Of a stretch of 64,000 bases of DNA, positions 13,410 to 64,000 are shown piece by piece. The translations under genes and the position numbers were made by a program. The stretch comes from an uncultured Thermoplasmata archaeon. GTDB lineage: Archaea; Thermoplasmatota; Thermoplasmata; Halarchaeoplasmatales; Halarchaeoplasmataceae. Numbering within the stretch: the stretch's first letter is position 1; every line of letters starts with the position of its first letter. The notes under the pieces are model-generated. The model was not told where the DNA came from. It saw only the letters and a list, made by a program, of their open reading frames with translations, and searched no databases. The stretch is from assembly GCA_964585175.1 (NCBI GenBank), contig CAZPCW010000002.1:5535-69534 (forward strand), read 5' to 3'.

Positions 13410-13736
13410 TTATAATTCCCCGCTGGCCAACTTTTCGTTAATCTCTTCCGAATTAAGATGACCTTCTACAGTGATGTCCACACTGTCTTCGTCAAGCCCA
13501 TCCATTCCCGCAAGACTCTTTTTTATCTTGACCGCGAGTTGGACTCCCATAGGACAGAAAGGACTGCTAGGAGTGAACGTAAGACTGACCTTATCTTCTC
13601 CTGCTTCTAAATCTGATACCAAACCCATAGAATAAACATCCGTACCTGTCTCGGGATCCATCACCGTTTTTAGCCTTTCCACGACTTCTTCTTTTTCTGG
13701 CATGGTTATGACCTCAATATATCCTTTAGTGTACAA
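13410..13736 (-). CDS. DUF59/MIP18-family Fe–S assembly protein (SufT-like)
   Basis: 108 aa. VVERLKTVMDPETGTDVYSMGLV...PFCPMG is the characteristic DUF59 signature with its conserved Cys. Confidence 0.7.
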   Translation of the reverse strand: MYTKGYIEVITMPEKEEVVERLKTVMDPETGTDVYSMGLVSDLEAGEDKVSLTFTPSSPFCPMGVQLAVKIKKSLAGMDGLDEDSVDITVEGHLNSEEINEKLASGEL

Positions 13737-24983: not shown

Positions 24984-25754
24984 ATGGCAGAAAAAATAAA
25001 ATGGGGAGAGATGAACCGATGGGAACTTGACCAGAGATCAGAAATGGTCGATACGGCGATCCTCCCGGTAGGAAGTCTCGAACAGCACGGACCGCATCTT
25101 CCACTTGATACGGACTCTTACGATGCGGGATATCTGGTAGAAAAAGCGGTGGAAGAACTCGACTCTGCAAAACCACCCATCCTGCCGACGATTCCTTACG
25201 GAGTGAGCGATCACCACATGTCCTTTCCGGGGACAGTCACGCTAAGCTCGGATACCGTTGAAGATATGGTGGTCGAGATAGGTAGATCCGTACTTCAGCA
25301 CGGTTTTTTCAAACTTTACATCTATAACGGCCACGGCGGTAACGACTCGGCGCTGAAAACAGCGGCGAGAAAATTGAAGAAAGAAACTGGCATGGCGGTT
25401 TTCGTCGATTCTTTCGAGAGTGTGTATCTAGAAAAAGAAAAAATCGTAGAAAGCGCTAACGACGTACATGCCGGAGAATTCGAGACGTCACTTGTACTCG
25501 CCAATAGAGAGGAAAAAGTGGACGAAAGGACGATACCCAAAAAAGAATATGATTTCCCCGACGAAAAGATGGAATTCGATCACGAACCTGAATTTTTCTA
25601 TTCCTGGCACACTCACGATCTAACTGAAACCGGTGTTATAGGTGATGCGTCGAAAGCTAGTAAAGAAAAGGGAGAAAAATTATGGGATGCTTCGATACAA
25701 AAAGTGAAGAATAGATTGGAGACCGTGATGGAAGTATCTCATCAATTCAAATAA
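24984..25754 (+). CDS. Creatininase-family amidohydrolase (ArfB/MptB-like)
   Basis: 256 aa. LPVGSLEQHGPHLPLDTD is the hallmark creatininase-fold metal-binding motif. Confidence 0.75.
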   Translation: MAEKIKWGEMNRWELDQRSEMVDTAILPVGSLEQHGPHLPLDTDSYDAGYLVEKAVEELDSAKPPILPTIPYGVSDHHMSFPGTVTLSSDTVEDMVVEIGRSVLQHGFFKLYIYNGHGGNDSALKTAARKLKKETGMAVFVDSFESVYLEKEKIVESANDVHAGEFETSLVLANREEKVDERTIPKKEYDFPDEKMEFDHEPEFFYSWHTHDLTETGVIGDASKASKEKGEKLWDASIQKVKNRLETVMEVSHQFK

Positions 25755-32133: not shown

Positions 32134-32370
32134 ATGTCAAATATTAAAGATGTCGACGTTCATGGAGAAACTTGTCCAGTACCTTTAGTTGAGACCAGAA
32201 AGGCGATACGGAAAGCCTCACCGGGCGAGATAATAGAGGTGTCCGGCGATCATCCCGAGTCAAAAGAAGAAATTCCCATGGCTGTCGATGAGCTTGGATT
32301 GGAACTCCTAGATATGAAAGAGGAGGGGAAAAAATGGAAGATAAGGATAAAAATACCGGAGGAGGATTGA
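32134..32370 (+). CDS. tusA: TusA-like sulfurtransferase
   Basis: 78 aa. The GETCPVP (CPxP) active-site motif appears near the N-terminus at the typical position. Confidence 0.8.
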   Translation: MSNIKDVDVHGETCPVPLVETRKAIRKASPGEIIEVSGDHPESKEEIPMAVDELGLELLDMKEEGKKWKIRIKIPEED

Positions 32371-32371
32371 T

Positions 32372-32797
32372 TTGTCTGAACAAGAAAAGGCCACCTTGAT
32401 CATCCACAGCGGTGAATTCGACAAGATATACAGTGCCTTGATACTCGGAACCGGAGCGCTTTCGATGGGAATGGAAGTATCGATGTACTTCACTTTCTGG
32501 GGGTTGGAGAGGCTGAAAAAGGACAGTCTAGATAAAGGACCGATGTCCAGGATGAATTATTTCGGCATGGGTAAATGGATGATGAAGAGAAAATTGGAAG
32601 AGTCGAACGTTCGGGAGCTCGACGACTTGCTTGAAGATTTCAACGAGTTGGGCGGTAAAATTTTAGCCTGTGATATGACCATGGATATAATGGGGATAGA
32701 CAAAGAAGATTTAAGAGATGAAGTCATAACCGATTACTGTGCAGTCGGTACGTATATTAAGGAAGCTAAAGAATCAGATGTTACGCTCTTCATATAG
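32372..32797 (+). CDS. DsrE/DsrF-like family protein
   Basis: 141 aa. N-terminal TLIIHSG, the conserved Cys in ILACDMTM and the C-terminal ...TLFI fit the DsrE/YchN fold family. It is adjacent to tusA. Confidence 0.6.
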   Translation: MSEQEKATLIIHSGEFDKIYSALILGTGALSMGMEVSMYFTFWGLERLKKDSLDKGPMSRMNYFGMGKWMMKRKLEESNVRELDDLLEDFNELGGKILACDMTMDIMGIDKEDLRDEVITDYCAVGTYIKEAKESDVTLFI

Positions 32798-33988
32798 GTG
32801 ATAAAGATGCAGGATGAAATAATATATATGGATAACTCGGCCAGCTCAGAACTGGACGAAGAAGTATTCGAGGCGATGAAACCTTACATGTTGGATAATT
32901 ATGCGGTCGCGACTTCAGATTTCGCATACAGCATGGGTGTAGAGGCGAAAGAAGCGCTAAACGCCGCGAGGGAGACTATCGCTAACGAGTTGAATGCATC
33001 AGAAGAAGAGTTCATATTCACTTCTTGTGCGACGGAATCCAGCAATCTAGCGCTTAAAGGTGTGACTGAAGAACTTTCTGAAGAGGGAGATCATATAATA
33101 ATCTCAGATATCGAGGATTTTCCCGTGCTAAAAACGGCTCAGAAACTGGAAAAAAACGGCTTCGATGTTACCTATTTAGACGTGGACGAAAAAGGCTTTG
33201 TAGACCTAGAGCAGTTGAAAAACGCGATCGATGAAGACACCATTCTAGTTTCTATACAGCACGGAAACCAGGAGATAGGGACTCTTCAGGACATAGAGAA
33301 GATAGCCGAGATATGCGATGAAAACGATGTCGTTTATCACACCGACGCGACACATACATTCGGTAGAGTTCCGATAGATGTGAGCGAGGTCCCGGTAGAC
33401 CTTATCACCGTTTCGGCCCATACGATACACGGTCCGAGAGGTATCGGCGGTCTTTATATCAGGGAAGGCACACCTATCGAAAAACAGATGGAAGGTGGTT
33501 TTCAGGAAAACAACATGAGAGCCGGGGTGGAAAATATACCCGGTGCGGTCGGCTTCGCTAAAGCCGTAGAACTGATCGACGAGGAAGAAAATAAGAGATT
33601 GGAAAAGCTGAGAGACAAGTTGATCGAAGGTATGAAGGAAGAGATCTCTGATGTAATCCTCAACGGACCTGAAGATAAAAGAACGCCTCAAAACGCTAAC
33701 CTGACTTTTCACTATGTCGAGGGCGAATCTATCACATTACATCTAGACATGAGAGGTATCGCGGTCAGTACCGGCTCGGCGTGTTTCAGCAAGTCCCTAG
33801 AAGCGAGCCATGTTATATTGGGTATAGGAGGCGATCACGAGAGAGCTCACGGCTCGATAAGATTCACTTTAGGAAGGTTCAATGATGAAGATCAAGTTGA
33901 AGAAGTGGTCGAGGCCACTTCGGATATCATACAAAATCTGAGAGATATAAGCCCGTTGGGCGAAGAAAAAGATGAAGAGGAGGAATGA
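32798..33988 (+). CDS. iscS: IscS/NifS-like class V aminotransferase lacking the PLP-binding lysine (Cys-loop retained)
   Basis: 396 aa. ATESSNLALKG, DATHTFG and STGSACFS (persulfide Cys loop) are present. The canonical S-x-H-K PLP-lysine motif reads TVSAHTIHGPRG (K→T). The GTG start is as given in the track; an alternative ATG lies at 32807. Confidence 0.8.
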   Translation: MIKMQDEIIYMDNSASSELDEEVFEAMKPYMLDNYAVATSDFAYSMGVEAKEALNAARETIANELNASEEEFIFTSCATESSNLALKGVTEELSEEGDHIIISDIEDFPVLKTAQKLEKNGFDVTYLDVDEKGFVDLEQLKNAIDEDTILVSIQHGNQEIGTLQDIEKIAEICDENDVVYHTDATHTFGRVPIDVSEVPVDLITVSAHTIHGPRGIGGLYIREGTPIEKQMEGGFQENNMRAGVENIPGAVGFAKAVELIDEEENKRLEKLRDKLIEGMKEEISDVILNGPEDKRTPQNANLTFHYVEGESITLHLDMRGIAVSTGSACFSKSLEASHVILGIGGDHERAHGSIRFTLGRFNDEDQVEEVVEATSDIIQNLRDISPLGEEKDEEEE

Positions 33989-34629
33989 TTATGGATAATG
34001 CGCCGTATACTGAAAAGGTTATCGAATACTTTCAAAATCCCAAGAACGTTGGAACGATAGAGGATCCGGACGGTTACGCTAAAGAAGGTAGCCCGGCCTG
34101 TGGAGACATGGTGGAACTGTTCTTGAGAGTAGATGAAGATACCCAAGAGATCAAAGATGTTAAGTTCAAATCCTACGGATGCGCTTCGAATATAGCGACC
34201 GGTTCAATAATAACCGAGATGGCGAAAGGTAGTACTATAGAAGAGGCTAAAGAGATCACTTGGCAGGAAGCGGCCGATGAACTCGGCGGTTTACCGGACC
34301 TAAAGACACACTGTTCCGTTTTAGCCGTAGACGCCCTCAGGGAAGCTATCAGGAATTTCGAGGAGAGGCACGGAATCGGAGAAGAGCAGAAGGAAACCAC
34401 TGCTGAAGTGGTGAAGGAACGGTTAAAACATGTGATGAATCCTATGACCGGCGTTGATGTGATAGAAACTGATCTGATACACGATATCGAAGTCGAGGAC
34501 GGAAAGATATCGATCGAAGTCGATCTGGAAGAGGATCATCAATTCGCTTCCGCCGTGAAAGAGGACATAAAGGAAAAATTGGAGCCCAGATGGGATGTCG
34601 AAGAAGTAATCGTTCACTTCAACGAATAG
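33985..34629 (+). CDS. iscU: IscU scaffold fused to C-terminal DUF59/MIP18-like domain
   Basis: 214 aa. The IscU domain carries the three conserved Cys (PACGD, YGCASN, THCSV). The C-terminal ~80 aa (VVKERLKHVMNPMTGVDVIETDL...) parallel the standalone DUF59 protein at 13410–13736. Confidence 0.8.
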   Translation: MIMDNAPYTEKVIEYFQNPKNVGTIEDPDGYAKEGSPACGDMVELFLRVDEDTQEIKDVKFKSYGCASNIATGSIITEMAKGSTIEEAKEITWQEAADELGGLPDLKTHCSVLAVDALREAIRNFEERHGIGEEQKETTAEVVKERLKHVMNPMTGVDVIETDLIHDIEVEDGKISIEVDLEEDHQFASAVKEDIKEKLEPRWDVEEVIVHFNE

Positions 34630-34646: not shown

Positions 34647-35360
34647 ATGGAGACCAACAGGTTGAAAAGGATCTTCAGGAAATACGCCAACGACAAGCTT
34701 CCGGAGGAAGCGGTTCTAGAAAAGTGTAAAGATGCAGAGCCCATGGAGATGTGGCACGCCAGGTTGTCTCTGATGATGGACGGAAACATCACTGAATCAC
34801 AAGCTAAACCCCTGGCGGATATAATAAATCGACTTACTAGAGGACGAACTAACATGTTGAAAGACCTTCCAACAAAGCATCCTCTAAGGATTTTTTTGAT
34901 GGAGCACAGGCAGATGGAAAAACTGTTTAGGATGTTGGAAAACCTGGAGATAAACGAATACGAAGAGATATCCTCAGAAGTGGAAGAACAGCTGAAAGAT
35001 ATAACAGAGAAAATGATGGAGATAGAAAAACACGAGACGAGAGAGGAAAAAAATCTGCTGCCGCGACTCGTCGAACTGAGTGAGAACAAAAAAGGCGTGG
35101 CCGGGATGGTAAAGCTGATAAAAATACGCCATTCACAGCTGATGAGGGATATAGTGAAATTAAGAAACCTCTCGTTAGAGGAGAAAGAAAATAGTGAAAT
35201 GATAGTGAAAAATAGGGACGAGCTTCTCTATTCGATGAGAGACCACAATTTCAAAGAGAACAGGATACTCTATCCTTTGGCTCTAGAAATCATAGAGGAC
35301 TGGGACGAAATAAAAGAAGAGAATGAGCAAATAGGATACATCAACTCTGAGATGGTGTGA
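34647..35360 (+). CDS. DUF438 + hemerythrin-like (HHE cation-binding) domain protein, paralog 1
   Basis: 237 aa from the ATG at 34647. The HPLRIFLMEH...EKHETREEKNLLPRL pattern fits the hemerythrin HHE domain. The C-terminal ENRILYPLALEIIEDW is shared with paralog 2. Confidence 0.55.
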   Translation: METNRLKRIFRKYANDKLPEEAVLEKCKDAEPMEMWHARLSLMMDGNITESQAKPLADIINRLTRGRTNMLKDLPTKHPLRIFLMEHRQMEKLFRMLENLEINEYEEISSEVEEQLKDITEKMMEIEKHETREEKNLLPRLVELSENKKGVAGMVKLIKIRHSQLMRDIVKLRNLSLEEKENSEMIVKNRDELLYSMRDHNFKENRILYPLALEIIEDWDEIKEENEQIGYINSEMV

Positions 35361-35367
35361 TGATTAT

Positions 35368-35586
35368 ATGACTTCGATCAGCATAGATCAAAACGGATGC
35401 ATAAGTTGTGGCATGTGCAGCACCCTCTGCCCGGAGGTGTTCGTGATGGACGAAAATGGTGTTGCACAGGTGAAAGTCGAATATCGAGGAAATAATCCTT
35501 CCGAGGGGGATCCCCCTGCAGATATAGGATGTGTAAAAGACGCGGTAGAAAGCTGTCCGGTAGATGTAATCACAGCGGAAGATTAG
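35368..35586 (+). CDS. Small single-cluster [4Fe-4S]/[3Fe-4S] ferredoxin
   Basis: 72 aa. It has the CISCGMCSTLCP ... CP cysteine pattern. Confidence 0.75.
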   Translation: MTSISIDQNGCISCGMCSTLCPEVFVMDENGVAQVKVEYRGNNPSEGDPPADIGCVKDAVESCPVDVITAED

Positions 35587-35601: not shown

Positions 35602-36297
35602 ATGGATGTGGAAAAAGTATCCGAGATACTGAAGGATATCTATTTGGAAAAAATCAGCAAAGAAGAAGGAATAGAAAAGCTGAAAAACGCTACCCCCATC
35701 GATCTGACTTCAGCCGAACTTCGTCTGATAAGCGAAGGTATGGATGGGTTGGAGATAGAAGAGATAAGCCAGATATACGACGAGATAATAGACGACCAGA
35801 CCAGTAAATTACTGAAAACGCTTGGTGAGAACCATCCTATTAAGAGGATGATCCTAGAGCACAAAGAGATCAGCGATTTTTTGGAAAATCTACTTGGTTT
35901 TTCGAGCAAAATAAGAACCAAAAAATACGAAGAAATGATGGATCAGTTCGACAACTTCCGAGATAATCTAAAACTTATACAATTCCATGAAAAGCGAGAG
36001 GAGGAAATCTTTTTCCCGGAGCTCGCGGATAAAGGTTTCGAAAAAAGGATAGAGATACTTGAAAAAGAACATCGCTATATCGATGAATATATAGACCAGA
36101 TGGATGAATTCTTGCAGAATTTAGAAAAAAACGAATTGGAAGCTCTAAAATCTATCGAGGAAATAATCTATACATTGAATTTTCACATGTTTATAGAAAA
36201 CAATCTTCTTTATCCTCTAGCGTTAGAAGAGATAGATGAGTGGGGAGATTTGAAAAAGAAAAGTGAAGATATGGGGTATATCGATTTGGAGTCCTAG
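35602..36297 (+). CDS. DUF438 + hemerythrin-like (HHE) domain protein, paralog 2
   Basis: 231 aa. NHPIKRMILEHKE...FHEKREEEIFFPEL and C-terminal ENNLLYPLALEEIDEW are present. It is clearly paralogous to 34647–35360. Confidence 0.55.
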   Translation: MDVEKVSEILKDIYLEKISKEEGIEKLKNATPIDLTSAELRLISEGMDGLEIEEISQIYDEIIDDQTSKLLKTLGENHPIKRMILEHKEISDFLENLLGFSSKIRTKKYEEMMDQFDNFRDNLKLIQFHEKREEEIFFPELADKGFEKRIEILEKEHRYIDEYIDQMDEFLQNLEKNELEALKSIEEIIYTLNFHMFIENNLLYPLALEEIDEWGDLKKKSEDMGYIDLES

Positions 36298-40438: not shown

Positions 40439-41641
40439 TCAGTCATCCATCGCCTCTTCTAGTTTTTCACTCAGTATTGGTATGACTTCGTGCAGATCAC
40501 CGACTATTCCGAAGTCCGCAACATCGAATATATCGGCGTCCGGATCGTCGTTTATAGCTATGATGTAATCGGAATCCTTGATACCCACCTTGTGCTGTAT
40601 CGCTCCGGAAACACCAGACACTATATACAGCTTTGGCGAAATGGTCTTTCCGCTCTGACCTACCTGCTTCGATTTCGGCAACACGTCCTCTTCGACTATC
40701 GGTCTACTGCATCCAACCGTACCGTCCAGTTTCTCAGCTAGTTCTTCCAAGATCTCGAAATCTTCTCTGTTCGTCCCGACGCCTCGTCCACCGCAGACTA
40801 CGGTGTCAGCTTCTTCGACCGGTATCTCTCCGGTCTCTTCAGGTTCCATCACTTCTATCACTTCTGTTCTTATAGCTTCTTCGCCGACCTCTACCTCTTC
40901 CTCGATAAGTTCGTATTCGCTGTCGTGATCCGGCTCGAGAGGACTCATGACGTGCGGCCTTACAGTAGCCATTTGTGGTCTAGAATTAGTACAAACGATG
41001 TCGGCCATGACGTTACCTCCAAAAGCGGGCCTGATCTGCATCAGCACTTCTCTGCCTTCTACTTCCTCGATACCTAGGTCTGTACAGTCCGCCGTAAGAC
41101 CGAGTCCCATCCTGCCCGCAACAGAAGGAGCTAGATCTCTTCCTAAGTGGGTCGCTCCGTAGAGGAATATGTTAGGCTTGTATTCGGAGATCAAAGTCGT
41201 TATAGCGGTAGTATAAGCCTCAGTAGAATAATCCTCGAACACTTCGTCTTCGACGACATAGACTTTCTCTGCACCATAAGCGCTCAGTTCTTCGGGAAGT
41301 CCTTCAACATCTTCACCTATCAAGACCGCGCAGAGTTCTTCCCCCAACTCGTCGGCCAATTCTCTTCCCTTTCCGAGAAGCTGGGGGCCTGTAGGCTTCA
41401 ATTCATTGCCCTGCGACTCAGCGTACACCCAAACGCCTTCGTACTCTGAGAAGTCCTTGTCTTGACTCATATCTATGACCGGCTCGATTGCGTCGACCGG
41501 ACAGGCGGAAACGCACGCACCACAAGATATGCAGTCGCCCACTAGTTTGGCTACACCGTCTTCCATGGCCAGAACGTCGACCGGACACACTTTCAAGCAC
41601 TTTTCACAGCCTGTACAAGTTTTCTCGTCTATCTCTATCAT
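40439..41641 (-). CDS. etfA: Electron transfer flavoprotein alpha subunit with N-terminal 2×[4Fe-4S] ferredoxin domain (FixB-type)
   Basis: 400 aa. The N-terminus has CTGCEKCLKVCP and CISCGACVSACP. The C-terminus has the ETF-alpha FAD-binding pattern (IVSGVSGAIQH). Confidence 0.85.
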   Translation of the reverse strand: MIEIDEKTCTGCEKCLKVCPVDVLAMEDGVAKLVGDCISCGACVSACPVDAIEPVIDMSQDKDFSEYEGVWVYAESQGNELKPTGPQLLGKGRELADELGEELCAVLIGEDVEGLPEELSAYGAEKVYVVEDEVFEDYSTEAYTTAITTLISEYKPNIFLYGATHLGRDLAPSVAGRMGLGLTADCTDLGIEEVEGREVLMQIRPAFGGNVMADIVCTNSRPQMATVRPHVMSPLEPDHDSEYELIEEEVEVGEEAIRTEVIEVMEPEETGEIPVEEADTVVCGGRGVGTNREDFEILEELAEKLDGTVGCSRPIVEEDVLPKSKQVGQSGKTISPKLYIVSGVSGAIQHKVGIKDSDYIIAINDDPDADIFDVADFGIVGDLHEVIPILSEKLEEAMDD

Positions 41642-42438
41642 AGTATCCCCTCCTCGTCTAAGAAATCGATCAATTGTTGAACCGACTTCTCGGGTTCTTC
41701 TTCGACTTTTATGCCTTCACCTTTCGGAGGCGGAGAGTACGTGTCTATTACTACGCTTTCGGAACCGTCGAGTCCGTACTCGTCGTTCTCACCGCCAATA
41801 TCTTCAATGGCCCATTCTTCCGTGGGCTTCTTTTTCGCTTTCATTATTTCTCTTACATTCGGTATCTTAGGTTCGAATCCCGGTTTCGGCATGCAGGCGA
41901 TCAGGACAGGCAGTTCCGACCTGATCTTCACATGTCCTTCGTCGGTTTCTTTCTTACATATGATATATTCTTCATCGGTATCTAAATCATTGACTTCAGA
42001 AACATAAGTCAATTGGGGAAGTCCCTGATGTGCAGCGACCTCTGGACCGACCTGAGCAGTATTACCGTCAGACGCTTCCTGACCAGCAAAGATCAAATCA
42101 ACGTCATCTATCTGCTTCAAGGCTCTGCCGAGAGTGACCGCAGTAGCCCACGTGTCCGCTCCGGCGAACTCGCTGTCGGTGAGCAAAATAGCTCTATCCG
42201 CACCGATAGCTTTACACTTGTTCAAAGCTTCCTCCGCCTGTGGAGGTCCCATCGTCATCGCTATTATCTCGACCTCTTCGTCGACTTCTTCCTTAAGGTC
42301 AACGGCTAAATTCAAAGCGAACTCGTCGAAAGAATTGAGGGTTGAAGGGACCCCGTCTCTGATGATGGTCCCGGTCTCCTCGTCCACTTCGACTTCGGTA
42401 GTATCCGGAACCTGCTTGACCAAAACCACGAATTTCAC
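41638..42438 (-). CDS. etfB: Electron transfer flavoprotein beta subunit (FixA-type)
   Basis: 266 aa. The N-terminus MKFVVLVKQVPDT is typical of ETF-beta. It overlaps etfA by 4 nt. Confidence 0.85.
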   Translation of the reverse strand: MKFVVLVKQVPDTTEVEVDEETGTIIRDGVPSTLNSFDEFALNLAVDLKEEVDEEVEIIAMTMGPPQAEEALNKCKAIGADRAILLTDSEFAGADTWATAVTLGRALKQIDDVDLIFAGQEASDGNTAQVGPEVAAHQGLPQLTYVSEVNDLDTDEEYIICKKETDEGHVKIRSELPVLIACMPKPGFEPKIPNVREIMKAKKKPTEEWAIEDIGGENDEYGLDGSESVVIDTYSPPPKGEGIKVEEEPEKSVQQLIDFLDEEGIL

Positions 42439-42446
42439 GGGATCAC

Positions 42447-43730
42447 CTATTTGTAAGGTATGTAGTCGTCACCTAGAGTCTCTCTAGCTATGACTATCTT
42501 TTGTATGTTAGCTCCGCCCTCTGCTCCTACACAGTAGGACATCACACCTCTCCAGGCGGTCTCGAATATGTATTCGGAGCTGTAACCGGCAGCGCCCAAC
42601 CAGTGCATCGCATCGTCAGCGGTATCTTTAGCTAGATGAGGGATCTTGTACTTGATCATAGAGATCCATTTTGCGATCTCTGTAGGACTGTATGTCTGAG
42701 CTTTGCCGCTCTTTTCCTTCCAGCCTTCTTCGTCATATCGGGTGTCCTGCATCTCTGCTACTCTATTTATCATGAGATCACTCGCTTCCATCTCGGTGTA
42801 TCTTTCCACGAAGGGGAACTGTATGCCTTCGTACTTAGCAAGAGGATTACCGAAGGTTTCTCTTTCCTTGATATAATCCGCGGCTTCTTCTAGGATACGC
42901 CTGGTGACTCCCACGGCACTAGCTCCTATCATGATTCTTGCGTTATCGAAGCCTTCCATCGTGTAGTAGAAACCTTTTCCCTGCTCTCCGAGCATGTATT
43001 CTTCTGGTATCCTAACATCGTTCATCTTGAATCCAGAAGTCGAAAGCGATCCTCTTCCTGCGTCATCGTAAGGTTCCTGAGGTTCCAAGCCATCCGAGTC
43101 GATAGGAACGAAGAACGCGGTCATGTTTTTGTGGGGAGCTCCTTCTACCTGAGGGCCGGTTCTGACGTTTACCCAATATCCCCCGCCCATTCTTTTACAC
43201 TCTTCGACTCCGCTGATGAAAGTTTTCTCGCCGTTGAGCACCCACTCGTCGCCGTCTTTCTCCGCTGTAGATTCGAAACCGGCGACGTCCGAACCGCCTT
43301 TGGGTTCGGTGGTAGCGATCCCAACGAATTTATCTCCTTGAATAGCGGGTTTTACGAATTTTTCTCTCACTTCTTCATTACAGTATCTGTTGATCGTGAA
43401 TCCCCATCCCGTCTCTACCGCCATAAAACCCGCCGCGGTAGCGATACTGGGATCAATATAACCTATCTGGTCCGCTATGGCGATTTGATCTTTCCAAGAA
43501 AGCCCCATACCGCCGTGTTCTTCAGGAACGGTGCCCATGATGACTCCTAGGTCCGCTAACCCTTCCACTATATCTTCAGGGAAGGGGTGTCCTTCTCTAT
43601 TTATTTTAATCACGCGCTCTAGAGGAAATTCTCTTTCCGCCCAATCTGTAATACTCTCTTTGAATAACTTCTGCTCCTCGGTAAGTCCTCTATCATCTGA
43701 AAGATCTGTCCTAGCCATTTTTTCCACCAT
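42447..43730 (-). CDS. Acyl-CoA dehydrogenase
   Basis: 427 aa. The ACAD three-domain pattern and a C-terminal catalytic region are present. It is adjacent to etfBA. Confidence 0.8.
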   Translation of the reverse strand: MVEKMARTDLSDDRGLTEEQKLFKESITDWAEREFPLERVIKINREGHPFPEDIVEGLADLGVIMGTVPEEHGGMGLSWKDQIAIADQIGYIDPSIATAAGFMAVETGWGFTINRYCNEEVREKFVKPAIQGDKFVGIATTEPKGGSDVAGFESTAEKDGDEWVLNGEKTFISGVEECKRMGGGYWVNVRTGPQVEGAPHKNMTAFFVPIDSDGLEPQEPYDDAGRGSLSTSGFKMNDVRIPEEYMLGEQGKGFYYTMEGFDNARIMIGASAVGVTRRILEEAADYIKERETFGNPLAKYEGIQFPFVERYTEMEASDLMINRVAEMQDTRYDEEGWKEKSGKAQTYSPTEIAKWISMIKYKIPHLAKDTADDAMHWLGAAGYSSEYIFETAWRGVMSYCVGAEGGANIQKIVIARETLGDDYIPYK

Positions 43731-57488: not shown

Positions 57489-58301
57489 TTACCACGGCCT
57501 TCTGCTCTTCCTCTTTCTCTGCCTATAGAGAAGGAATACTACAAAGCTAACGGCTATAACTGCAACTATAACTCCTGCATAGAGCATAGTATTTGTCTCA
57601 CCTTCTACGTGGAATGTGCGATCCATGACCCGGTCTTGTTTATTGAAACTATCGGGATCGTTATCGGTTCCATAATCCACCCAGACTTTTAGATCATGCT
57701 CTCCTGAAGATAAACCTTCTTTAGACCACTTGAAAGTTACCTTTCTCTGTTCCCCAGGCTTCAAATCCTCTACCATGACAGTGCTCTTCTTATCGCCGTC
57801 TATGAACAATCCCAATTCCATCTTCTTGATAGTGATGTTGGTCGGATTATTTATGGGGACCGTGGTTACTTCAGGTTCCTCTACTTCGATCCTGTACTGT
57901 TTCTCCGTATATGAGACGCTTCCGTTCTTACCACAATATGCCGTTAAATTCAGATATCCTTTTCCTTCCTCGTGTACAGTAACATTCACCGTGTACACAT
58001 TAGTCGTAGAGGTTCCGATGCTCTGAGGTTCAACGGTCGCGTCCATAGTCGATTCGGTTTTAAGAGTCCAATTGTCAGCTCTCTCAGCATCTACAAGATC
58101 GTCACCGACTTGGAACACACCTTTTATCTCTACTTCGTAATTCTCGGTTTCATTGACAAATAACTTATCCGGACCGTCGACTGATATATTAATACGGCTG
58201 TCTTCTTGCGCAGCTTCAGATATCTGGAAAGCGGACATCCCGCTTCCTATCATCATCAAGATCACTATTATGGCCAAAAAGGCCGGTTTTTTCCACTTCA
58301 T
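57489..58301 (-). CDS. Membrane-anchored surface protein with Ig-like/CARDB-like domains
   Basis: Likely start MKWKKPAFLAIIV at 58301, which overlaps the AglB stop by 1 nt. An N-terminal signal/TM is followed by a β-rich ectodomain. The C-terminal TM is followed by an RKRKSRR tail. Confidence 0.65.
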   Translation of the reverse strand: MKWKKPAFLAIIVILMMIGSGMSAFQISEAAQEDSRINISVDGPDKLFVNETENYEVEIKGVFQVGDDLVDAERADNWTLKTESTMDATVEPQSIGTSTTNVYTVNVTVHEEGKGYLNLTAYCGKNGSVSYTEKQYRIEVEEPEVTTVPINNPTNITIKKMELGLFIDGDKKSTVMVEDLKPGEQRKVTFKWSKEGLSSGEHDLKVWVDYGTDNDPDSFNKQDRVMDRTFHVEGETNTMLYAGVIVAVIAVSFVVFLLYRQRKRKSRRPW

Positions 58302-61300
58302 CAGAGCCACCTCTTTTTCCTCATAACGTAAAGTGCCGCTATCGAAACTAGTAATATTATGCCAGCCCATTGCCAGTTCGACAACGTGAAGGGTTCTTCT
58401 TCTAAAGCGAGTTCATCCGTAGTAAATTCAACTTTTTCCGGATCACCAGTGAGTTCAGGTAGAGATGTCGTGAATTCTTCAGTATCAGTAACTTCCTCGT
58501 CTCCTTCAGAAACAGCCATCAACTCGACCGTGACGTCTCTTTTGGAATTCGGAGTTGTAGAGCGCAGCTTGACTTCGAACGCATTCTGTTCTTGTTTAGC
58601 GATCTCCTTAGTATCTTGAGCTAAGGTTATATTCCAACCCCAGTTCTTCAACTCTTCTTCGTTGACCACTTCCAATCTATAATTGTGGGCGCCATTCCCT
58701 TTATTTTTGACATCTACAGAATATGTGAACTCTCCTTCACCATATTCCTTAGAACGGATTCCTGATAAAAGATCGACCTTATATATCGGTTTGACGTTTA
58801 TCGGGAGCGTTTTTTCTTCTTTTTCTTCTAAATTGGGTGAATCGACCATCATTTTTATTGAATCGTCTTCACTAGCATTTTCTCCAACTTGGACGGTTAC
58901 TTTGATCTGCTTTTTCTCTGTTGGTCCCAAAGAAACGGTCTCAGGTTCAAAATCCACTTCCCATTCAGAATTCGAGACTGAGAATTCATATTCATCTTGG
59001 GTATTACCGGCGTTAGTGATCTCAGCGGTGAACTCGATAGTTTCGCCCTGCGATACCGTTTTCTCTTCTAGTTCACTTATTTTTACTTCGAAGTTTTTGA
59101 CTTTCTTCAATTCTATCGTTCTTTCTTCGTCGTGCTGTATATCCAAAGTATTAGAATACTTGAAGTTGGTAGACCCATAATCCATCTCCCTAGTTTCCTG
59201 AGCGTCTATAGAGTACCTGCCCTTCGGCAATAGAATACGGAAAGAACCGTTTTCATCTGTCTCAAATTGTCTGTTAGCGATCTCCTTCCTAATATTTAGA
59301 TCAGTCTCTACACCTTCACCGCGTAACTTCACTTCACCAGAGAAAATTATGCCTTCTTCCAAAGATATATCATGAGTGTGATCCTCGGCGGGCATCTTGA
59401 ATGTATCGAAATAGGAGTAAGTTTCGCCCATCGACTGGTGAGATATGTAGACAGTGTATTGTCCTTGTATCACCTGATCTAGATGATATTCACCTTCTTC
59501 ATCCGTCTGTACTGTAAACTCATCCTCCTCAGACTTTATACTAATCTCTACATTTTTTACCGGTGATCCTCCAAGCATTACCTTGCCTTTTAGAGTTGAA
59601 TTCAGTACATATCTTTCCAATTCTAGCGGCATTGATATCGGCGTGTCTCGCTCTTCAGAAAGATGATATCGGACATCTCTTTCTACTCCGTTGATCTCTT
59701 CCTCGGTAACATAGTCGACCTTAATCCTGTAATTTCCAGCGGTCACGTTGATATTCAACTCTCCGTCCGGCCCACTTAAAGTTCGAAGGGTGTAATCGGT
59801 ATCTAGGTTTTCAAAGGAAACTGGCATTCCCTGTTGATTTAAGCCTGTAATGTCAGCATTCACTGAATAGGTATCCTCTAGCGAAAGATCCATGGATGTG
59901 GACATATTTTCTTTCACAGCCAATCTCTTCTGCACGGCACGAGTTCCTTCTGGGTTAACAGCCCGTACCGAATAAGTTCCTGGTATGAGATAAGTTGAGA
60001 AAGTTCCATCAGCCGAAATAGTTCTATTTTCAGGACCCTGGAAATAAATATCAGCTTCAGAGGACAATTCACCTTTCACTTTCGTCTTATATATTGCCCT
60101 GAGATCTTTAGTCACGCCTTGTTCTCCGGGTTCGATCGACAATGAGTCGGAGACTTCATACCTTATTTCGTCCTCCATCAAGGAATAGTTACTGACGATT
60201 TCGTATTTTCCAGGCTGAAGTTCAACACGGTAACTACCGTCGGCCGCTTCTATCTCTTTACTAACGGCTCCATCGGCCAAAGGTTTGAATTCCAGTTTTA
60301 GTGTTTCTACTAATTCCCTATCGAAATCGATATTTCCTTCAACAGTGATATTTTTAGCATCTAGGTGAATATCCATATCTTTTTCTTGGTCGAGTTGAGA
60401 AGGATTTATAGTCAAATAACGGTCATGATATCCTTCTTTTTTGACTGTGAGAGTGCAGTCCTTTTCAGGAAGATATAAACTATAATTTCCATCTACATTT
60501 GTAGCGGTACTGAACTCATGTCCACCACAGCTAATTTGGATATCCGTGTAGAGTCCTTCACCATCTCTATCAGAGTTGAACAGGTTTCTTTTGACTTTGC
60601 CTTGAACCTTGTACCCCTTCGATGGATCAAGATTTAGTTCTACATCCCTATTCAAATTGATCTGCTCTGAGAAGTAAAGATCCTCGCCTTGTCCTGGGAA
60701 GGTTGATTCTTTCCAACCGTAAACGTCGTATTGGCCTCCCGGTAGATGGGTCTTAAATCTTCCTTCTGAATTAGTTGTGATATAATGCTCCCCACCATTT
60801 TTACCTTTAACGAATATTTCGGCTTTTTCAACGCTAGAACCATCATAAATCACTTCACCGGTCAATTTGTAAGCCTGGTCAAACTTCCCAGTGTATTCTG
60901 TATCTGAAGTTAACAAGATGTCGTCCAAGGTCGCGTAAACCTCTTCCCCCTCCCTGTTAATACCATAGATCTGGTATTTTCCTTCTGGCAATTTTATATC
61001 AAATTCACCATTTTCACCTGTCTTTACCATCCTGTCATAATTCTTAGCCAGTATCGAAAGTCTTTGATTAGAGATCTCTTTTCCTTCCTTTGTTACTTCT
61101 CCCTTCAATCGGTGAGCTTTAACTATCTCGATATCTTTATTGACGCTTCCAGTCTCGTTTATCTCAAGATCCGAAGGCCCATATCGAAGGGTGTATCCGT
61201 CGTCATCGATATTTAAGGTGTATTCGCCGAACGAGAGATCTGAAAATTCATACTCATCTGTCTCTCCTATTCTGATTTTCTCATCTTCCTCTTTTCCTTC

Positions 61301-64000
61301 TAAGGAGAGCTTGAATTCCTCTTTCTCTAGCCCCTCTCCATAAGTTATATTACCTCTTATCTTACCGACTGATACGGGTAGGTCCTTAGAAGATTGTTCT
61401 CCGGGTTTCACGACTTGATTTTTCAAATCGGCGCTTCCTGGAATAGAGCTCTCGATAGAATAATTTCCAGGAGCAATCTTCGAAAATTCGTAAGTACCAT
61501 TTTCGATGGACGATGTATACTCGATGTCGGACTTTTTACTTTCTATGACTACCTCGCCAGTACCAGAATAAAGAGTGTCGTTTGATTTATCATATTCCCC
61601 GTTATCGGCTCGATCTAAGAATACTTTTCCCGACATCTGACCTAATTCGACTTCAAAATCGTTCAGCAGTTTATAATCCATTCGACCATCTCCGTCTCTA
61701 TCAACGGGCTTTCTCAACGCTTGTTCCTTGGTGATGTTATACTGTTCATTGTCGAGTACGATTTCTTCCCTTCCGACCAATTTCTGTTGATTGCCCCCTG
61801 TTGAAACCAATACTGTCATGTTACCTTCAGGAAGAACAACTCTATAGTTACCTCCTTCATCTGTAATCGTTGAGTCATGGCGCGTTCCACGCCCGTCAGT
61901 AGTATCGACAACAGTAACCCTAGCATTCGGTATTGGCTCACCAGTTTCCGTTTTCACTTGTCCTTTCAAGACAGCCCCGTCGTAATATTTCAAGAATACG
62001 ACTCCTTGTCGCATATAGCTTCGAGCCGAGTCATCGACCGTAACGTTTTCATTGTCTTTTTGTTCAACACCCTTGTCATAATAATTGATCGCCTCCCTTG
62101 ACCCAGTGTGGTTTCTCACTTCATCTCGAGGATATGGATAATAGTAGGCTGTTTTATACACATCTTTGAAATGTGTGAGATTCCAACTAGGCATCGGTTT
62201 AAGTGATTGTCTCGTTCTTCTCCCGGATAAGCCAGGGATTCCTTTTTCTCCCCGGCCAACTTCATGCTTGCTATATCCTGCAAATGTCCTGTATAGAGCG
62301 GAGTTGAAAAACATCGATTTATATTTTATCTTCTGATCAACGATCCTAGCATCTTCTGGAACATTATCGGGGTCGTCATAACTCTGTCCTGCAGAATCGA
62401 TGAATTCGTAAGTGAAAAAGTCTTCCGGAACTCTGCCGCGACCGAAATCTTTCATACGATGTCCTGAAAGGAAAGCCGGGGCATGGAAGATACCCGTCCG
62501 TTGAGCTGATGTCGGGAACAGCCTTGAATCGACCGCTAAATATCCCATACGGTTTTCAAGTCTATCATATCCAGAATTATAACTTACATCTCTATAAAGT
62601 GAAGAAAGGGTCTCCAGGTCCTCTTCAGATAGAGTACCCATGACCATCGCCCACATTACATTTTTATTACCGATATCGTCAGCTCTGGGATGATATTTAT
62701 CGGGATTCGATAGGACTTCGTTTTTATATTCGCCTGAATTCTGGTAAATATCTTCTAGTTTTTGGGTTTTCTCTTTCCCTAAATGATCCACTAGTATGGC
62801 TTGAACTTTGCCTTCAAATTGACCCTCTTCATTATAGGGCAACTGCAACTGTCTACCTATCATCAAACCAATTATCTCTGATTCGTTTTGCGCCATCAGA
62901 ACATTACCAGTGAATCTATAACCGTGCTGAAAGTTGTCAGCAACCGTAGGATGGTCTCCTCTGTTCATCGCCTGAAATCCATAGTCCCACCAGCTCACAA
63001 ATGCAGGCCTTTCTTTAGGCGGCAGTTGATTATCCTGTTGGCTGAACCAATCCCAAGCCGCTGGCCAATAATCGGTTGGCCTGTCTAGACTAGGTCCGAA
63101 AGCTCCAAGGTAATGGAGTTCTTGTTCAGGATTATGATCTTTAGCTTTCAAAGGTTCAGGTAGAGTATCGTAGATCTGTTCATTATACTTTGACTTCTCC
63201 TGATATGGGGTGGCCGAATCGATAACGTACATTGCGTTCGGAGTGAGGATCAGAAACACGACGAACAATGTGACCAAAACATGTTTGATTTTCACACCTT
63301 CTCGTATTCCCCTTATAACGTTGCCTCTGTGGCTTGTAAAACTCCTTGCGAACTCTTCGAATTTCGCTTTATCGAAAATCAAAGCCACTACCCATCCAGA
63401 AGTCAGGGCAAACGCCGGTGATGCATTATATATGAACCTGGTAGCCGTAGTCGCCATATAAATCGCAAATACCATCCAAACTAACACAAACAAGAATGAA
63501 CGACGCCAGGTTTTCTTCAAGTGCCAACCGGCCAATGGTAGTGCTATAAAGGATAGGAAAAATGTTGTGATTCCCGTAGCTAGAACTAAACGACTGAATG
63601 AAGGTGCTTGAGCCTCAGCGATAGTCGAATACAATTTATTCTGGATGAAATACTGAGAAGCGGCCTGCGTGATCACATCAGGGCCTAGAGTGAAAAAGAG
63701 TACGCCTGCGATCGCGAGTATGGAAAAAGTCAACACCCATGGAAGGTCTCTAGTGACTGAGAAATATACTCCAAGACCGAAGGATCCCAAGAATATAACA
63801 AAGGGGATCTGGAAATATCTACCTAGCGGCCATTGGATCAATGTAGTGAATTTTTCTAATGCTCCGGCTGGCGTTTTTCCATACCAAGGTAAAGCCACCA
63901 AGAATACGAGCATTATCATTACAAATATAGATATAGTGATCCCGAGGGAATCTTCACCTCTAAATTTATCTATAACTAACTGAACCAAAAAGTACACTAA
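58301..64000 (-). CDS. aglB: AglB/STT3 oligosaccharyltransferase fused to ~1,200-aa C-terminal array of CarboxypepD_reg-like domains; N-terminus truncated by window edge
   Basis: More than 1,898 aa. Multi-TM helices precede the WWDYG catalytic motif (ERPAFVSWWDYGFQA). About 10 tandemly repeated β-sandwich units of ~90 aa follow (G-x-V…NG-x-Y-x…L/PEG-x-Y pattern). The protein ends with a C-terminal TM plus RKKRWL. Only about 7 TMs precede WWDYG, so the true start lies beyond 64000. Confidence 0.8.
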   Translation of the reverse strand, partial: LVYFLVQLVIDKFRGEDSLGITISIFVMIMLVFLVALPWYGKTPAGALEKFTTLIQWPLGRYFQIPFVIFLGSFGLGVYFSVTRDLPWVLTFSILAIAGVLFFTLGPDVITQAASQYFIQNKLYSTIAEAQAPSFSRLVLATGITTFFLSFIALPLAGWHLKKTWRRSFLFVLVWMVFAIYMATTATRFIYNASPAFALTSGWVVALIFDKAKFEEFARSFTSHRGNVIRGIREGVKIKHVLVTLFVVFLILTPNAMYVIDSATPYQEKSKYNEQIYDTLPEPLKAKDHNPEQELHYLGAFGPSLDRPTDYWPAAWDWFSQQDNQLPPKERPAFVSWWDYGFQAMNRGDHPTVADNFQHGYRFTGNVLMAQNESEIIGLMIGRQLQLPYNEEGQFEGKVQAILVDHLGKEKTQKLEDIYQNSGEYKNEVLSNPDKYHPRADDIGNKNVMWAMVMGTLSEEDLETLSSLYRDVSYNSGYDRLENRMGYLAVDSRLFPTSAQRTGIFHAPAFLSGHRMKDFGRGRVPEDFFTYEFIDSAGQSYDDPDNVPEDARIVDQKIKYKSMFFNSALYRTFAGYSKHEVGRGEKGIPGLSGRRTRQSLKPMPSWNLTHFKDVYKTAYYYPYPRDEVRNHTGSREAINYYDKGVEQKDNENVTVDDSARSYMRQGVVFLKYYDGAVLKGQVKTETGEPIPNARVTVVDTTDGRGTRHDSTITDEGGNYRVVLPEGNMTVLVSTGGNQQKLVGREEIVLDNEQYNITKEQALRKPVDRDGDGRMDYKLLNDFEVELGQMSGKVFLDRADNGEYDKSNDTLYSGTGEVVIESKKSDIEYTSSIENGTYEFSKIAPGNYSIESSIPGSADLKNQVVKPGEQSSKDLPVSVGKIRGNITYGEGLEKEEFKLSLEGKEEDEKIRIGETDEYEFSDLSFGEYTLNIDDDGYTLRYGPSDLEINETGSVNKDIEIVKAHRLKGEVTKEGKEISNQRLSILAKNYDRMVKTGENGEFDIKLPEGKYQIYGINREGEEVYATLDDILLTSDTEYTGKFDQAYKLTGEVIYDGSSVEKAEIFVKGKNGGEHYITTNSEGRFKTHLPGGQYDVYGWKESTFPGQGEDLYFSEQINLNRDVELNLDPSKGYKVQGKVKRNLFNSDRDGEGLYTDIQISCGGHEFSTATNVDGNYSLYLPEKDCTLTVKKEGYHDRYLTINPSQLDQEKDMDIHLDAKNITVEGNIDFDRELVETLKLEFKPLADGAVSKEIEAADGSYRVELQPGKYEIVSNYSLMEDEIRYEVSDSLSIEPGEQGVTKDLRAIYKTKVKGELSSEADIYFQGPENRTISADGTFSTYLIPGTYSVRAVNPEGTRAVQKRLAVKENMSTSMDLSLEDTYSVNADITGLNQQGMPVSFENLDTDYTLRTLSGPDGELNINVTAGNYRIKVDYVTEEEINGVERDVRYHLSEERDTPISMPLELERYVLNSTLKGKVMLGGSPVKNVEISIKSEEDEFTVQTDEEGEYHLDQVIQGQYTVYISHQSMGETYSYFDTFKMPAEDHTHDISLEEGIIFSGEVKLRGEGVETDLNIRKEIANRQFETDENGSFRILLPKGRYSIDAQETREMDYGSTNFKYSNTLDIQHDEERTIELKKVKNFEVKISELEEKTVSQGETIEFTAEITNAGNTQDEYEFSVSNSEWEVDFEPETVSLGPTEKKQIKVTVQVGENASEDDSIKMMVDSPNLEEKEEKTLPINVKPIYKVDLLSGIRSKEYGEGEFTYSVDVKNKGNGAHNYRLEVVNEEELKNWGWNITLAQDTKEIAKQEQNAFEVKLRSTTPNSKRDVTVELMAVSEGDEEVTDTEEFTTSLPELTGDPEKVEFTTDELALEEEPFTLSNWQWAGIILLVSIAALYVMRKKRWL

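Follow-up and report, generated by a model that had tools for sequence, protein, structure and literature searches.

The window analysed here is a 64,000-nucleotide stretch of contig CAZPCW010000002.1 (assembly GCA_964585175.1) from an uncultured Thermoplasmata archaeon. It contains a tightly packed operon on the + strand, in which starts and stops abut or overlap, and the third gene of this operon, iscS*, encodes a homologue of the cysteine desulfurase IscS in which the lysine that forms the Schiff base with pyridoxal 5′-phosphate (PLP) is replaced by threonine (Table 1). The GTG start of iscS* abuts the stop of dsrE2, which encodes a sulfurtransferase-like protein; the stop of tusA, the gene for a sulfur carrier of the TusA type, is 1 nt before the dsrE2 start; and the iscS* stop overlaps the start of a gene in which the Fe-S cluster scaffold IscU is fused to a DUF59 domain. 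As far as sequence comparison goes, what sets IscS* apart, beyond the known loss of the lysine, is this conserved four-gene sulfur-relay cassette together with a concerted remodelling of the cofactor pocket.

Table 1. Features of the iscS* operon (window coordinates). Equivalent residues are given in E. coli IscS numbering, and counts refer to the 120 closest homologues of IscS* and to representatives that retain the lysine (Lys-type).
Feature	Position	Strand	Description
iscS* (MisS1/IscS1-type)	32798..33988	+	fold of a type I cysteine desulfurase, PLP lysine replaced; 396 aa, GTG start
Val37 codon	32906..32908	+	replaces Asn35; V in 118/120 homologues vs N in 126/128 Lys-type representatives
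Asp107 codon GAT	33116..33118	+	site of the PLP-stacking His (H104); D in 115/120, N in 5/120 homologues
Gln158 codon	33269..33271	+	replaces Asn155; Q in 120/120 homologues vs N in 123/128 Lys-type representatives
His186 codon	33353..33355	+	replaces Gln183; H in 119/120 homologues vs Q in 124–125 of the 128–129 Lys-type representatives
Thr209 codon ACG	33422..33424	+	site of the PLP Schiff-base Lys (K206); T in 119/120 homologues
Val244 codon	33527..33529	+	replaces Thr243; V, L or I in the clade vs T in 125/129 Lys-type representatives
Cys329 codon TGT	33782..33784	+	persulfide-loop cysteine kept, motif STGSACFSKS
tusA	32134..32370	+	78-aa TusA/SirA-type sulfur carrier, CPxP motif (Cys14); PF01206 1.9e-21
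dsrE2	32372..32797	+	141-aa soluble DsrE2B-like sulfurtransferase (Cys100); PF13686 DrsE_2 6e-38
iscU::DUF59	33985..34629	+	IscU scaffold fused to C-terminal FeS_assembly_P (DUF59/SufT-like); PF01592 8e-43, PF01883 4e-11
hemerythrin-like protein 1	34647..35360	+	PF01814 7e-10; clade-specific operon extension
ferredoxin	35368..35586	+	small, single-cluster [4Fe-4S]-type; PF13459 7e-16, PF13370
hemerythrin-like protein 2	35602..36297	+	PF01814 1.6e-16; weak DUF438-like N-terminus, faint YtfE/RIC similarity

By sequence and fold, IscS* is homologous to the type I (IscS/NifS/MisS) cysteine desulfurases over its full length. The class V aminotransferase model PF00266 matched residues 9–369 with an E-value of 4e-71, as expected for a full-length protein of the IscS/NifS type, and a search of the solved structures in the PDB by sequence gave a best E-value of 3e-99. 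The AlphaFold2 model (predicted local distance difference test score, pLDDT, 76.9; predicted template-modelling score, pTM, 0.80) has the IscS/NFS1 fold. Foldseek gave template-modelling (TM) scores of 0.80–0.83 against NFS1, E. coli IscS and Archaeoglobus fulgidus IscS, the value for NFS1 and IscS being 0.83. The region of the cysteine loop (residues 310–351) was modelled with low confidence, and the model is uninformative on the pocket. IscS* scored below the cut-off of every NCBIfam desulfurase model, NifS, IscS and NF002806 among them (451 against a cut-off of 530.75, 403.5 against 548, 385 against 643 and 277.9 against 304). Judged by these scores and by the pocket residues described below, IscS* lacks what defines an active cysteine desulfurase, and its annotation as such is unwarranted.

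The sequence around the lysine site, translated from the open reading frame (ORF) at 32798..33988, is ...DLITVSAHTIHGPRGIGG..., and positions 33380-33440 encode ...VDLITVSAHTIHGPRG.... The initial annotation had proposed that the Schiff-base lysine is replaced by threonine and the PLP-stacking histidine by another residue, while the persulfide loop STGSAC is retained. All three proposals held when IscS* was compared with solved desulfurases, except that the threonine codon, ACG, lies at 33422-33424 and not, as first given, at 33409-33411; it is still within the interval reported. The HMMER alignments were ungapped and of high confidence, and placed Thr209 on the Schiff-base lysine, with SAHKMYGPKG as the counterpart in 9wep and SSNKIYGPKG that in the A. 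fulgidus IscS mutant D199K (4r5f). The same alignments placed Asp107 on the stacking histidine (EIEHHSIL, VEHMSVI). Alignment with E. coli IscS in MAFFT agreed, pairing K206 with T209, H104 with D107 and C328 with C329; the motifs of the E. coli sequence used here match those in Fig. S2 of PMC7585200.

The changes in the pocket extend beyond these two residues. We compared 120 clade members with 128–129 representatives that bear the lysine. At the lysine site, the clade has threonine with a single exception, a proline, while all 129 Lys-type representatives have lysine; the stacking histidine is likewise invariant in the Lys-type set (128/128). At four more pocket positions the clade has conserved substitutions, with N35 replaced by V37, N155 by Q158, Q183 by H186 and T243 by V244, the last varying between V, L and I within the clade. 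In the structures of E. coli IscS and Thermotoga maritima NifS, N35, N155, Q183 and T243′ are contacts to PLP or substrate, Thr243 being a phosphate ligand contributed by the partner subunit. In the whole of IscS*, there are nine strictly clade-specific positions, and five of these are pocket residues. Conversely, T76, D180, S203, H205, C328 and R354 (E. coli numbering) are kept, the first four corresponding to T79, D183, S206 and H208 of IscS*. We take D180 to be the ligand of the pyridine nitrogen and T76, S203 and H205 to be phosphate ligands, and Arg354 presumably binds the substrate carboxylate. The loop cysteine, Cys329, was present in 120 of 120 homologues and in 87 of 87 loci, and conservation in the clade peaks in residues 300–360 around it, where the mean frequency of the top residue is 0.93–0.96 versus 0.79 overall. 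Taken together, this pattern of lost and kept residues suggests that PLP is absent from IscS*, and we propose that the protein is no longer able to make persulfide from L-cysteine.

It is extremely unlikely that IscS* is still a PLP-dependent desulfurase that takes its lysine from elsewhere, or that the threonine is the product of a sequencing error or of a decaying pseudogene. Asp183, Thr79, Ser206 and His208 are indeed kept, and Lys229 is invariant in the clade and might be thought to substitute. However, the motif aligns without gaps at 45–50% identity to the solved enzymes, which rules out, at the level of sequence, a shift in register that would bring a lysine into the site, and five additional contacts to PLP or substrate are gone. 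Lys229 aligns with E. coli Ala228, outside the pocket motifs and presumably at a position on a surface strand rather than in the pocket. As to error or decay, the ORF is intact and 65–92% conserved across phyla, and the threonine site is encoded by all four threonine codons in 83 related loci (ACC 39, ACA 18, ACG 15 and ACT 11). Codon usage and conservation across phyla thus rule out a sequencing error or a pseudogene as the source of Thr209. Of the two circumstances that the initial annotation had named as fatal to its reading, the miscalled codon is thereby disposed of, and the shifted register is so at the level of sequence. Since all four codons are in use, the threonine is evidently kept at the lysine site by selection.

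IscS* was searched against 5.8 billion proteins, with 7,916 matches at E ≤ 1e-20; the best 120 of these were 65–92% identical to it. Their hosts are metagenome-assembled genomes (MAGs) of Thermoplasmatota (including ‘Ca. Natronoplasma’), MSBL1, Kor-, Heimdall-, Thor- and Aenigmatarchaeota. The nearest contig belongs to a Thermoplasmata MAG, the IscS* protein of which is 92% identical to that of the window. In an exhaustive search among 50%-identity representatives, these sequences collapse to two, after which the score falls from 541 to 449 and 389 bits. On this comparison they form a tight and distinct clade, the T/D clade, the signature of which (V37, D107, Q158, H186, T209 and the STGSACFS loop) IscS* carries, and the pattern of conservation indicates that IscS* is under strong purifying selection.

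Conservation of this kind could also mean that the pocket has been put to a new use. Asp107, Gln158, His186, His208 and Thr209 would then bind a new ligand, for instance a metal such as Fe2+, a sulfide or polysulfide, or a phosphorylated cofactor held non-covalently, and so confer a catalytic or iron-donor activity. The replacement residues are 96–100% conserved, the pocket accounts for five of the nine strictly clade-specific positions, and the phosphate and pyridine-nitrogen ligands T79, D183, S206 and H208 are kept; moreover, the T/D clade is uniform, while the other lineages without the lysine are varied and look more like decay. On the other hand, about 40% of the clade columns are conserved at ≥95%, as buried core positions usually are, so that the conservation of the replacement residues weighs little either way. 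No known metal- or sulfide-binding motif was recognised in the pocket, and position 244 (T243 in E. coli) drifts between V, L and I as in a relaxed site. We regard a re-purposed pocket of this sort as rather improbable.

The lysine has been lost in other relatives as well. In the nearest 150 50%-identity representatives (P0121–P0270), 21 lacked the PLP lysine and had T, L, S, D, M, P, Q, A or R in its place. The further loss of pocket residues differs between these lineages, and the loop cysteine was kept in all 20 that cover the site. Most of the representatives without the lysine have a Lys-type sequence as nearest neighbour, which suggests that the lysine was lost several times independently. 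The designation ‘cysteine desulfurase’ is thus misleading for IscS homologues of this type. Five other lineages without the lysine were looked up, and three of them had tusA adjacent: the gene order is iscS-iscU::DUF59-tusA in P0125, iscS-iscU-tusA in P0141, and tusA-iscS, with TusA immediately upstream, in P0127, which is of the A. fulgidus type. Counted by lineage, TusA is adjacent in 4/6 Lys-less versus 0/7 Lys-type lineages (Fisher exact p ~0.02, calculated by hand on a small sample). In P0129, a K→L lineage, a creatininase-family gene lies between iscS* and a short iscU (L020, 4548-7499), and an upstream ORF of 148 amino acids without a Pfam match occupies the place of TusA. The window also has a creatininase-family gene, unlinked to the operon (24984-25754).

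By Pfam domain and conserved cysteine, the two proteins encoded upstream of IscS* are members of their families. TusA scored 76 bits against PF01206 (cut-off 28.6), and its Cys14 was invariant in 72 of 72 cassette homologues. It fell below the NCBIfam cut-offs for TusA, YedF and YeeD and is not an equivalog of the E. coli proteins. A role in selenium metabolism was considered and rejected: the best NCBIfam match was YedF, at 47 bits versus a cut-off of 79, and the YedE and SelD neighbours are absent. DsrE2 scored 130.7 bits against PF13686, and its best solved relative is 2qs7 (1.8e-21), which has been classed as an archaeal DsrE2B (PMC11094781). Cys100 was invariant in 72/72 homologues and Cys123 was present in 46/72. 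Against the NCBIfam equivalog for the sulfur carrier protein DsrE2, the window protein reached 71.5 bits, short of the cut-off of 210; by this measure it is related to, yet distinct from, the DsrE2 of sulfur oxidisers.

Downstream, the best solved relatives of IscU::DUF59 are the Methanothrix IscU 7c8m and the A. fulgidus IscU 4eb5_C. C39, C66, H109 and C110 were invariant in 80 of 80 homologues, the ACGD motif with D41 was present in ≥90%, and the LPPVK chaperone motif of IscU reads LPDLK in the window protein. A short tblastn match to IscU::DUF59 was found elsewhere in the window (13581-13685, − strand; 35 amino acids, 49% identity, E = 4e-5), which may be a small DUF59-like ORF.

The initial annotation had suggested that the upstream TusA/DsrE pair belongs with IscS* and that this association should be surveyed in other archaea. 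A metagenome scan with the clade alignment returned at least 544 relatives, of which the best 80 were analysed; 59 of these loci had enough flanking sequence. The arrangement tusA-dsrE2-iscS*-iscU::DUF59 was complete and in order in 55 of the 59, and all carry T at the lysine site and C at the cysteine site. A scan of genome contigs with IscS* as the single query contributed the relevant loci L001 and L002, and its Lys-type matches were reused as controls. In none of the seven control loci, which included the two nearest Lys-type representatives, did profile hidden Markov models detect TusA or DsrE2 nearby, and the IscU encoded there is short and without DUF59. The synteny thus lends the suggested association strong support. 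Six unrelated contexts, namely a methanogen (with hcg and mtr genes), Heimdallarchaeota, Korarchaeota, a MAG labelled ‘bacterium’, a peat metagenome and a Thermoplasmata MAG, show the domain order TusA - DrsE_2 - Aminotran_5 - NifU_N+FeS_assembly_P every time, with flanks that are entirely different. The cassette is thus near-invariant, occurs in many archaeal phyla and is specific to the Lys-less form.

Some loci depart from this arrangement or add to it. In L074 (3584-8323) and L098 (3570-8482), the cassette is rearranged to tusA-iscS*-iscU::DUF59; dsrE2 is not next to these genes, and a further tusA-dsrE2 pair lies about 2.5 kb downstream on the same strand. In a methanogen contig with hcgC, hcgF and mtrH (L011/L012, 2892-7945), sufC-sufB lies directly upstream of the cassette, making six consecutive Fe-S-related genes. 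A general linkage between the cassette and sufBC was rejected, as it was seen in this one methanogen lineage and at none of the other loci.

These data also bear on the possibility that the cassette delivers sulfur to a target other than Fe-S clusters, such as tRNA thiolation, molybdopterin or another thio-cofactor, with IscU::DUF59 as a SufU-like acceptor. TusA is best known from the tRNA 2-thiouridine and molybdenum cofactor (Moco) pathways, and SufU shows that proteins with the IscU fold can turn into sulfurtransferases (PMC13066941). However, the IscU domain keeps the full Cys/Asp/Cys/His/Cys ligand set, has an Fe-S assembly domain, DUF59, fused to it, and scores far better against the IscU/NifU models than against SufU (TIGR03419 NifU_clost 154.7 bits and the IscU model 121.4 bits, versus 65 bits). 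No tRNA-modifying or Moco genes were linked to the cassette in any locus inspected, whereas sufCB are its neighbours in the methanogen lineage noted above. We therefore consider a non-Fe-S target very unlikely.

An IscS without the lysine, IscS1, was already noted in Methanosarcina acetivorans by Deere et al. in 2020 (PMC7585200). The printed sequence of this protein (IscS1/MisS1, MA0808), as read by machine, is ≈66% identical to the window IscS* and has the same motifs (YAVATS, EDFPVL, NQEIG, ATH, SAHTIHGPRG, RAGV and STGSACFS), so IscS* is an apparent orthologue of IscS1 and belongs to the IscS1/MA0808 subfamily. The gene order of the isc1 locus, MA0810-MA0807, is also that of the window: a SirA-like (TusA) protein (MA0810), a protein of the DsrE superfamily (MA0809), IscS1, and an IscU1 of 24 kDa (MA0807). 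The neighbours of IscS1 were described as genes of unknown function and were not connected to the missing lysine (PMC7585200). Our literature search likewise returned no paper that ties the missing lysine to the TusA/DsrE2 genes, and no functional study of the cassette. The two hosts differ in phylum and habitat, the window deriving from a Thermoplasmata relative that is heterotrophic and of the soda-lake type, and IscS1 from a methanogen. The loci differ as well: the window operon continues into hemerythrin-like and ferredoxin genes, while the genes next to the M. acetivorans cluster are one for a hypothetical protein and a histidine-triad gene. In Methanococcus voltae, adjacent DsrE-family (D7DUT0) and SirA-family (D7DUT1) proteins are expressed (PMC9431491), and methanogens that have no gene for the cysteine desulfurase SufS are assigned there to the ancestral class I lineage; the TusA-DsrE pair may thus also work without an IscS* partner.

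The initial annotation had likened IscS* to the PLP-free IscS of A. fulgidus. In published accounts, this protein is described as having Asp199 at the lysine site and as inactive as a desulfurase, and the structure of the (IscS-IscU)2 complex as one in which a cysteine of IscS ligates the [2Fe-2S] cluster on IscU (PMC7585200, PMC13066941, bioRxiv 2024.03.20.586028). The likeness stands as a functional precedent: A. fulgidus IscS2 (AF0564; 4eb5, 4eb7 and 4hvk) has the type I fold, with a sequence match of 4e-98 and TM scores of 0.80–0.82 to IscS*, and 4eb5 and 4hvk are among its best matches in sequence and fold. Both proteins lack the Schiff-base lysine, keep the loop cysteine and have an adjacent IscU gene. 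It does not extend to close kinship, as the pattern of substitutions is different. In the A. fulgidus type, the changes are K→D, H205→N, Q183→A and T243→S, with H104, N35 and N155 left as they are, whereas in IscS* they are N35→V, H104→D, N155→Q, Q183→H and K→T, and H205 is unchanged; furthermore, the A. fulgidus IscU is without the DUF59 fusion, and DsrE2 was not found in the A. fulgidus-type locus. Because the sequences closest to IscS* and to AF0564 are in both cases of the Lys-type, in an identity ranking rather than a full phylogeny, the two appear to be separate lineages that lost the lysine independently. IscS* may thus resemble the A. fulgidus protein in how it works, by analogy of function.

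The nearest alternative to a sulfur relay is a pure scaffold in the manner of A. fulgidus, in which IscS* would dock IscU and lend Cys329 as a ligand, sulfur would enter as free sulfide, and TusA and DsrE2 would serve otherwise, in buffering or detoxifying reactive sulfur or in regulation. Such a model has been published for A. fulgidus IscS, the one Lys-less IscS that has been characterised. It agrees with the conservation of the loop cysteine and of the IscU ligands, and many of the hosts live, as the contig names suggest, in sulfidic, anoxic habitats (soda-lake and marine sediments). It leaves unexplained, however, why TusA and DsrE2, with their invariant cysteines, should be locked into the operon in 55 of 59 loci and be absent from the Lys-type loci. 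In addition, iscS2U2 of A. fulgidus by itself failed to rescue an Fe-S mutant of E. coli, even when Na2S was supplied (bioRxiv 2024.03.20.586028), suggesting that a part is missing and that the two-protein unit may be incomplete. A scaffold pure and simple is in our estimate unlikely.

We instead favour, with a probability of roughly 0.6, the reading that IscS* is a PLP-free adaptor, the loop cysteine of which relays sulfane sulfur from TusA and DsrE2 to IscU. IscS* would be a PLP-independent paralogue of the type I desulfurase IscS/MisS, at the centre of a four-protein, cysteine-independent Fe-S assembly module encoded in one operon. TusA (Cys14) and DsrE2 (Cys100) would carry sulfane sulfur, taken from polysulfide, thiosulfate, oxidised sulfide or a similar pool that is inorganic or of low molecular weight, and hand it to Cys329 on the mobile loop of the IscS* dimer. 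With the IscU domain docked on IscS*, Cys329 would pass the sulfur on to it and would probably double as a fourth, transient ligand while the cluster forms, and the fused DUF59 domain would help in onward transfer of the cluster. In this organism, the two hemerythrin-like di-iron proteins and the ferredoxin may supply iron and the electrons for the reduction of S0 to S2−. In this picture, what is observed is the substitutions, how well they are conserved, the synteny, and the cysteines and cluster ligands that do not vary; the absence of PLP, a complex of IscS* with IscU, the direction in which sulfur flows, and what the hemerythrin-like proteins and the ferredoxin do are added by inference.

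The components of such a relay have precedents. With the canonical IscS/NFS1/NifS/MisS and IscU systems, IscS* shares the fold, a dimer-type architecture, the mobile cysteine loop, Arg354 and an IscU gene immediately downstream; it differs from the canonical desulfurases in the absence of the Schiff-base lysine, the stacking histidine and four further pocket residues, and in having TusA and DsrE2 as neighbours. Direct binding of TusA to IscS is documented for E. coli (PDB 3lvj, which is among the fold matches of IscS*), and sulfur oxidisers have DsrE/TusA relays (Dahl laboratory; Liu et al. 2014) in which sulfur passes between DsrE-type proteins and TusA. With these relays the cassette has in common a TusA that bears the CPxP cysteine and a DsrE2B-like protein in which a cysteine is conserved. 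Dsr or sHdr sulfur-oxidation genes were absent from the host window, as were a second desulfurase and SufBC in the whole 64 kb.

Several points weigh against a relay through IscS*. Biochemistry has been reported for no member of the clade, and recombinant M. acetivorans IscS1 went into inclusion bodies (PMC7585200). In the characterised E. coli system, the persulfide is formed by IscS and passed on to TusA for use in tRNA thiolation, and the proposed flow from TusA/DsrE2 to IscS* runs the other way. With D180, T76, S203 and H205 kept, non-covalent binding of PLP, pyridoxamine 5′-phosphate or another phosphorylated ligand is possible, and the conservation of the replacement residues is as compatible with a new use of the pocket as with its loss of function. 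Adjacent dsrE2 is missing in 4 of the 59 metagenome loci, and TusA is nearby in neither of two other Lys-less lineages, one of which was seen on a 2.4-kb contig. Finally, the relay presupposes that TusA and DsrE2 can be loaded with sulfur under sulfidic, anoxic conditions.

The operon does not end with iscU::DUF59. The ORF of the first hemerythrin-like protein, as listed, starts from an ATG at 34590, inside the 3′ end of iscU; the ATG at 34647 (METNRLKR...) is the likelier start, as it avoids the overlap. The two hemerythrin-like proteins are paralogues with 27% identity and flank the ferredoxin, and the second has sub-threshold matches to DUF438 (0.0018) and to the NCBIfam YtfE/RIC model (1e-4, far below the cut-off). 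A hemerythrin-like gene after iscU was also found in L001, L002 and L097, and the full hemerythrin-ferredoxin-hemerythrin extension is shared with L001. The ferredoxin had matches only in L001, L029 and L064 among the scanned loci, and in L064 it is directly 3′ of iscU. As the hemerythrins occur only in close relatives of the window (L001, L002 and L097), we rejected the extension as a general feature and do not count it among the core genes.

The rest of the window encodes a CDP-archaeol synthase, an eRF1-like protein, glycosidases of the GH1 and GH57 families, genes of the Leloir pathway, and EtfAB with an acyl-CoA dehydrogenase; it looks like the genome of a sugar-fermenting archaeon. The acyl-CoA dehydrogenase is encoded on the − strand (40439-43730), followed by EtfB and by an EtfA with an N-terminal 2×[4Fe-4S] ferredoxin domain, an arrangement typical of electron-bifurcating Etf complexes in anaerobes. 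A very long ORF of at least 1,898 amino acids, also on the − strand, lies at the right-hand edge of the window (58301-63997, the latter being its listed end).

The cassette bears on the source of sulfur for Fe-S clusters in methanogens. In Methanococcus maripaludis, the source has been shown to be sulfide and not cysteine (summarised in PMC10500019). In M. acetivorans, both copies of SufBC can be deleted without loss of Fe-S content, and deletion of IscS2U2 causes only a defect that is specific to cysteine (PMC10500019). As SufBC and IscS2U2 do not account for it, the sulfide-compatible route in M. acetivorans is still to be assigned. The cassette, which is widespread in archaea and combines sulfur carriers, an adaptor that would be unable to use cysteine, and a scaffold, is a concrete candidate for the entry of sulfur without cysteine desulfurase chemistry in strict anaerobes, notably methanogens and other archaea. 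We put forward only tentatively, as a possibility on the unlikely side, the stronger proposition that the cassette is the cysteine-independent Fe-S route of anaerobic archaea and that, in addition, the former PLP pocket of IscS* has been re-tooled for catalysis or for the binding of a ligand, for example iron or sulfide. Because the cassette exists as MA0807-MA0810 in the genetically tractable M. acetivorans, the question is directly testable. If true, the cassette would be the long-sought cysteine-independent Fe-S route of methanogens, Asgard archaea and Thermoplasmatota, using inorganic or sulfane sulfur.

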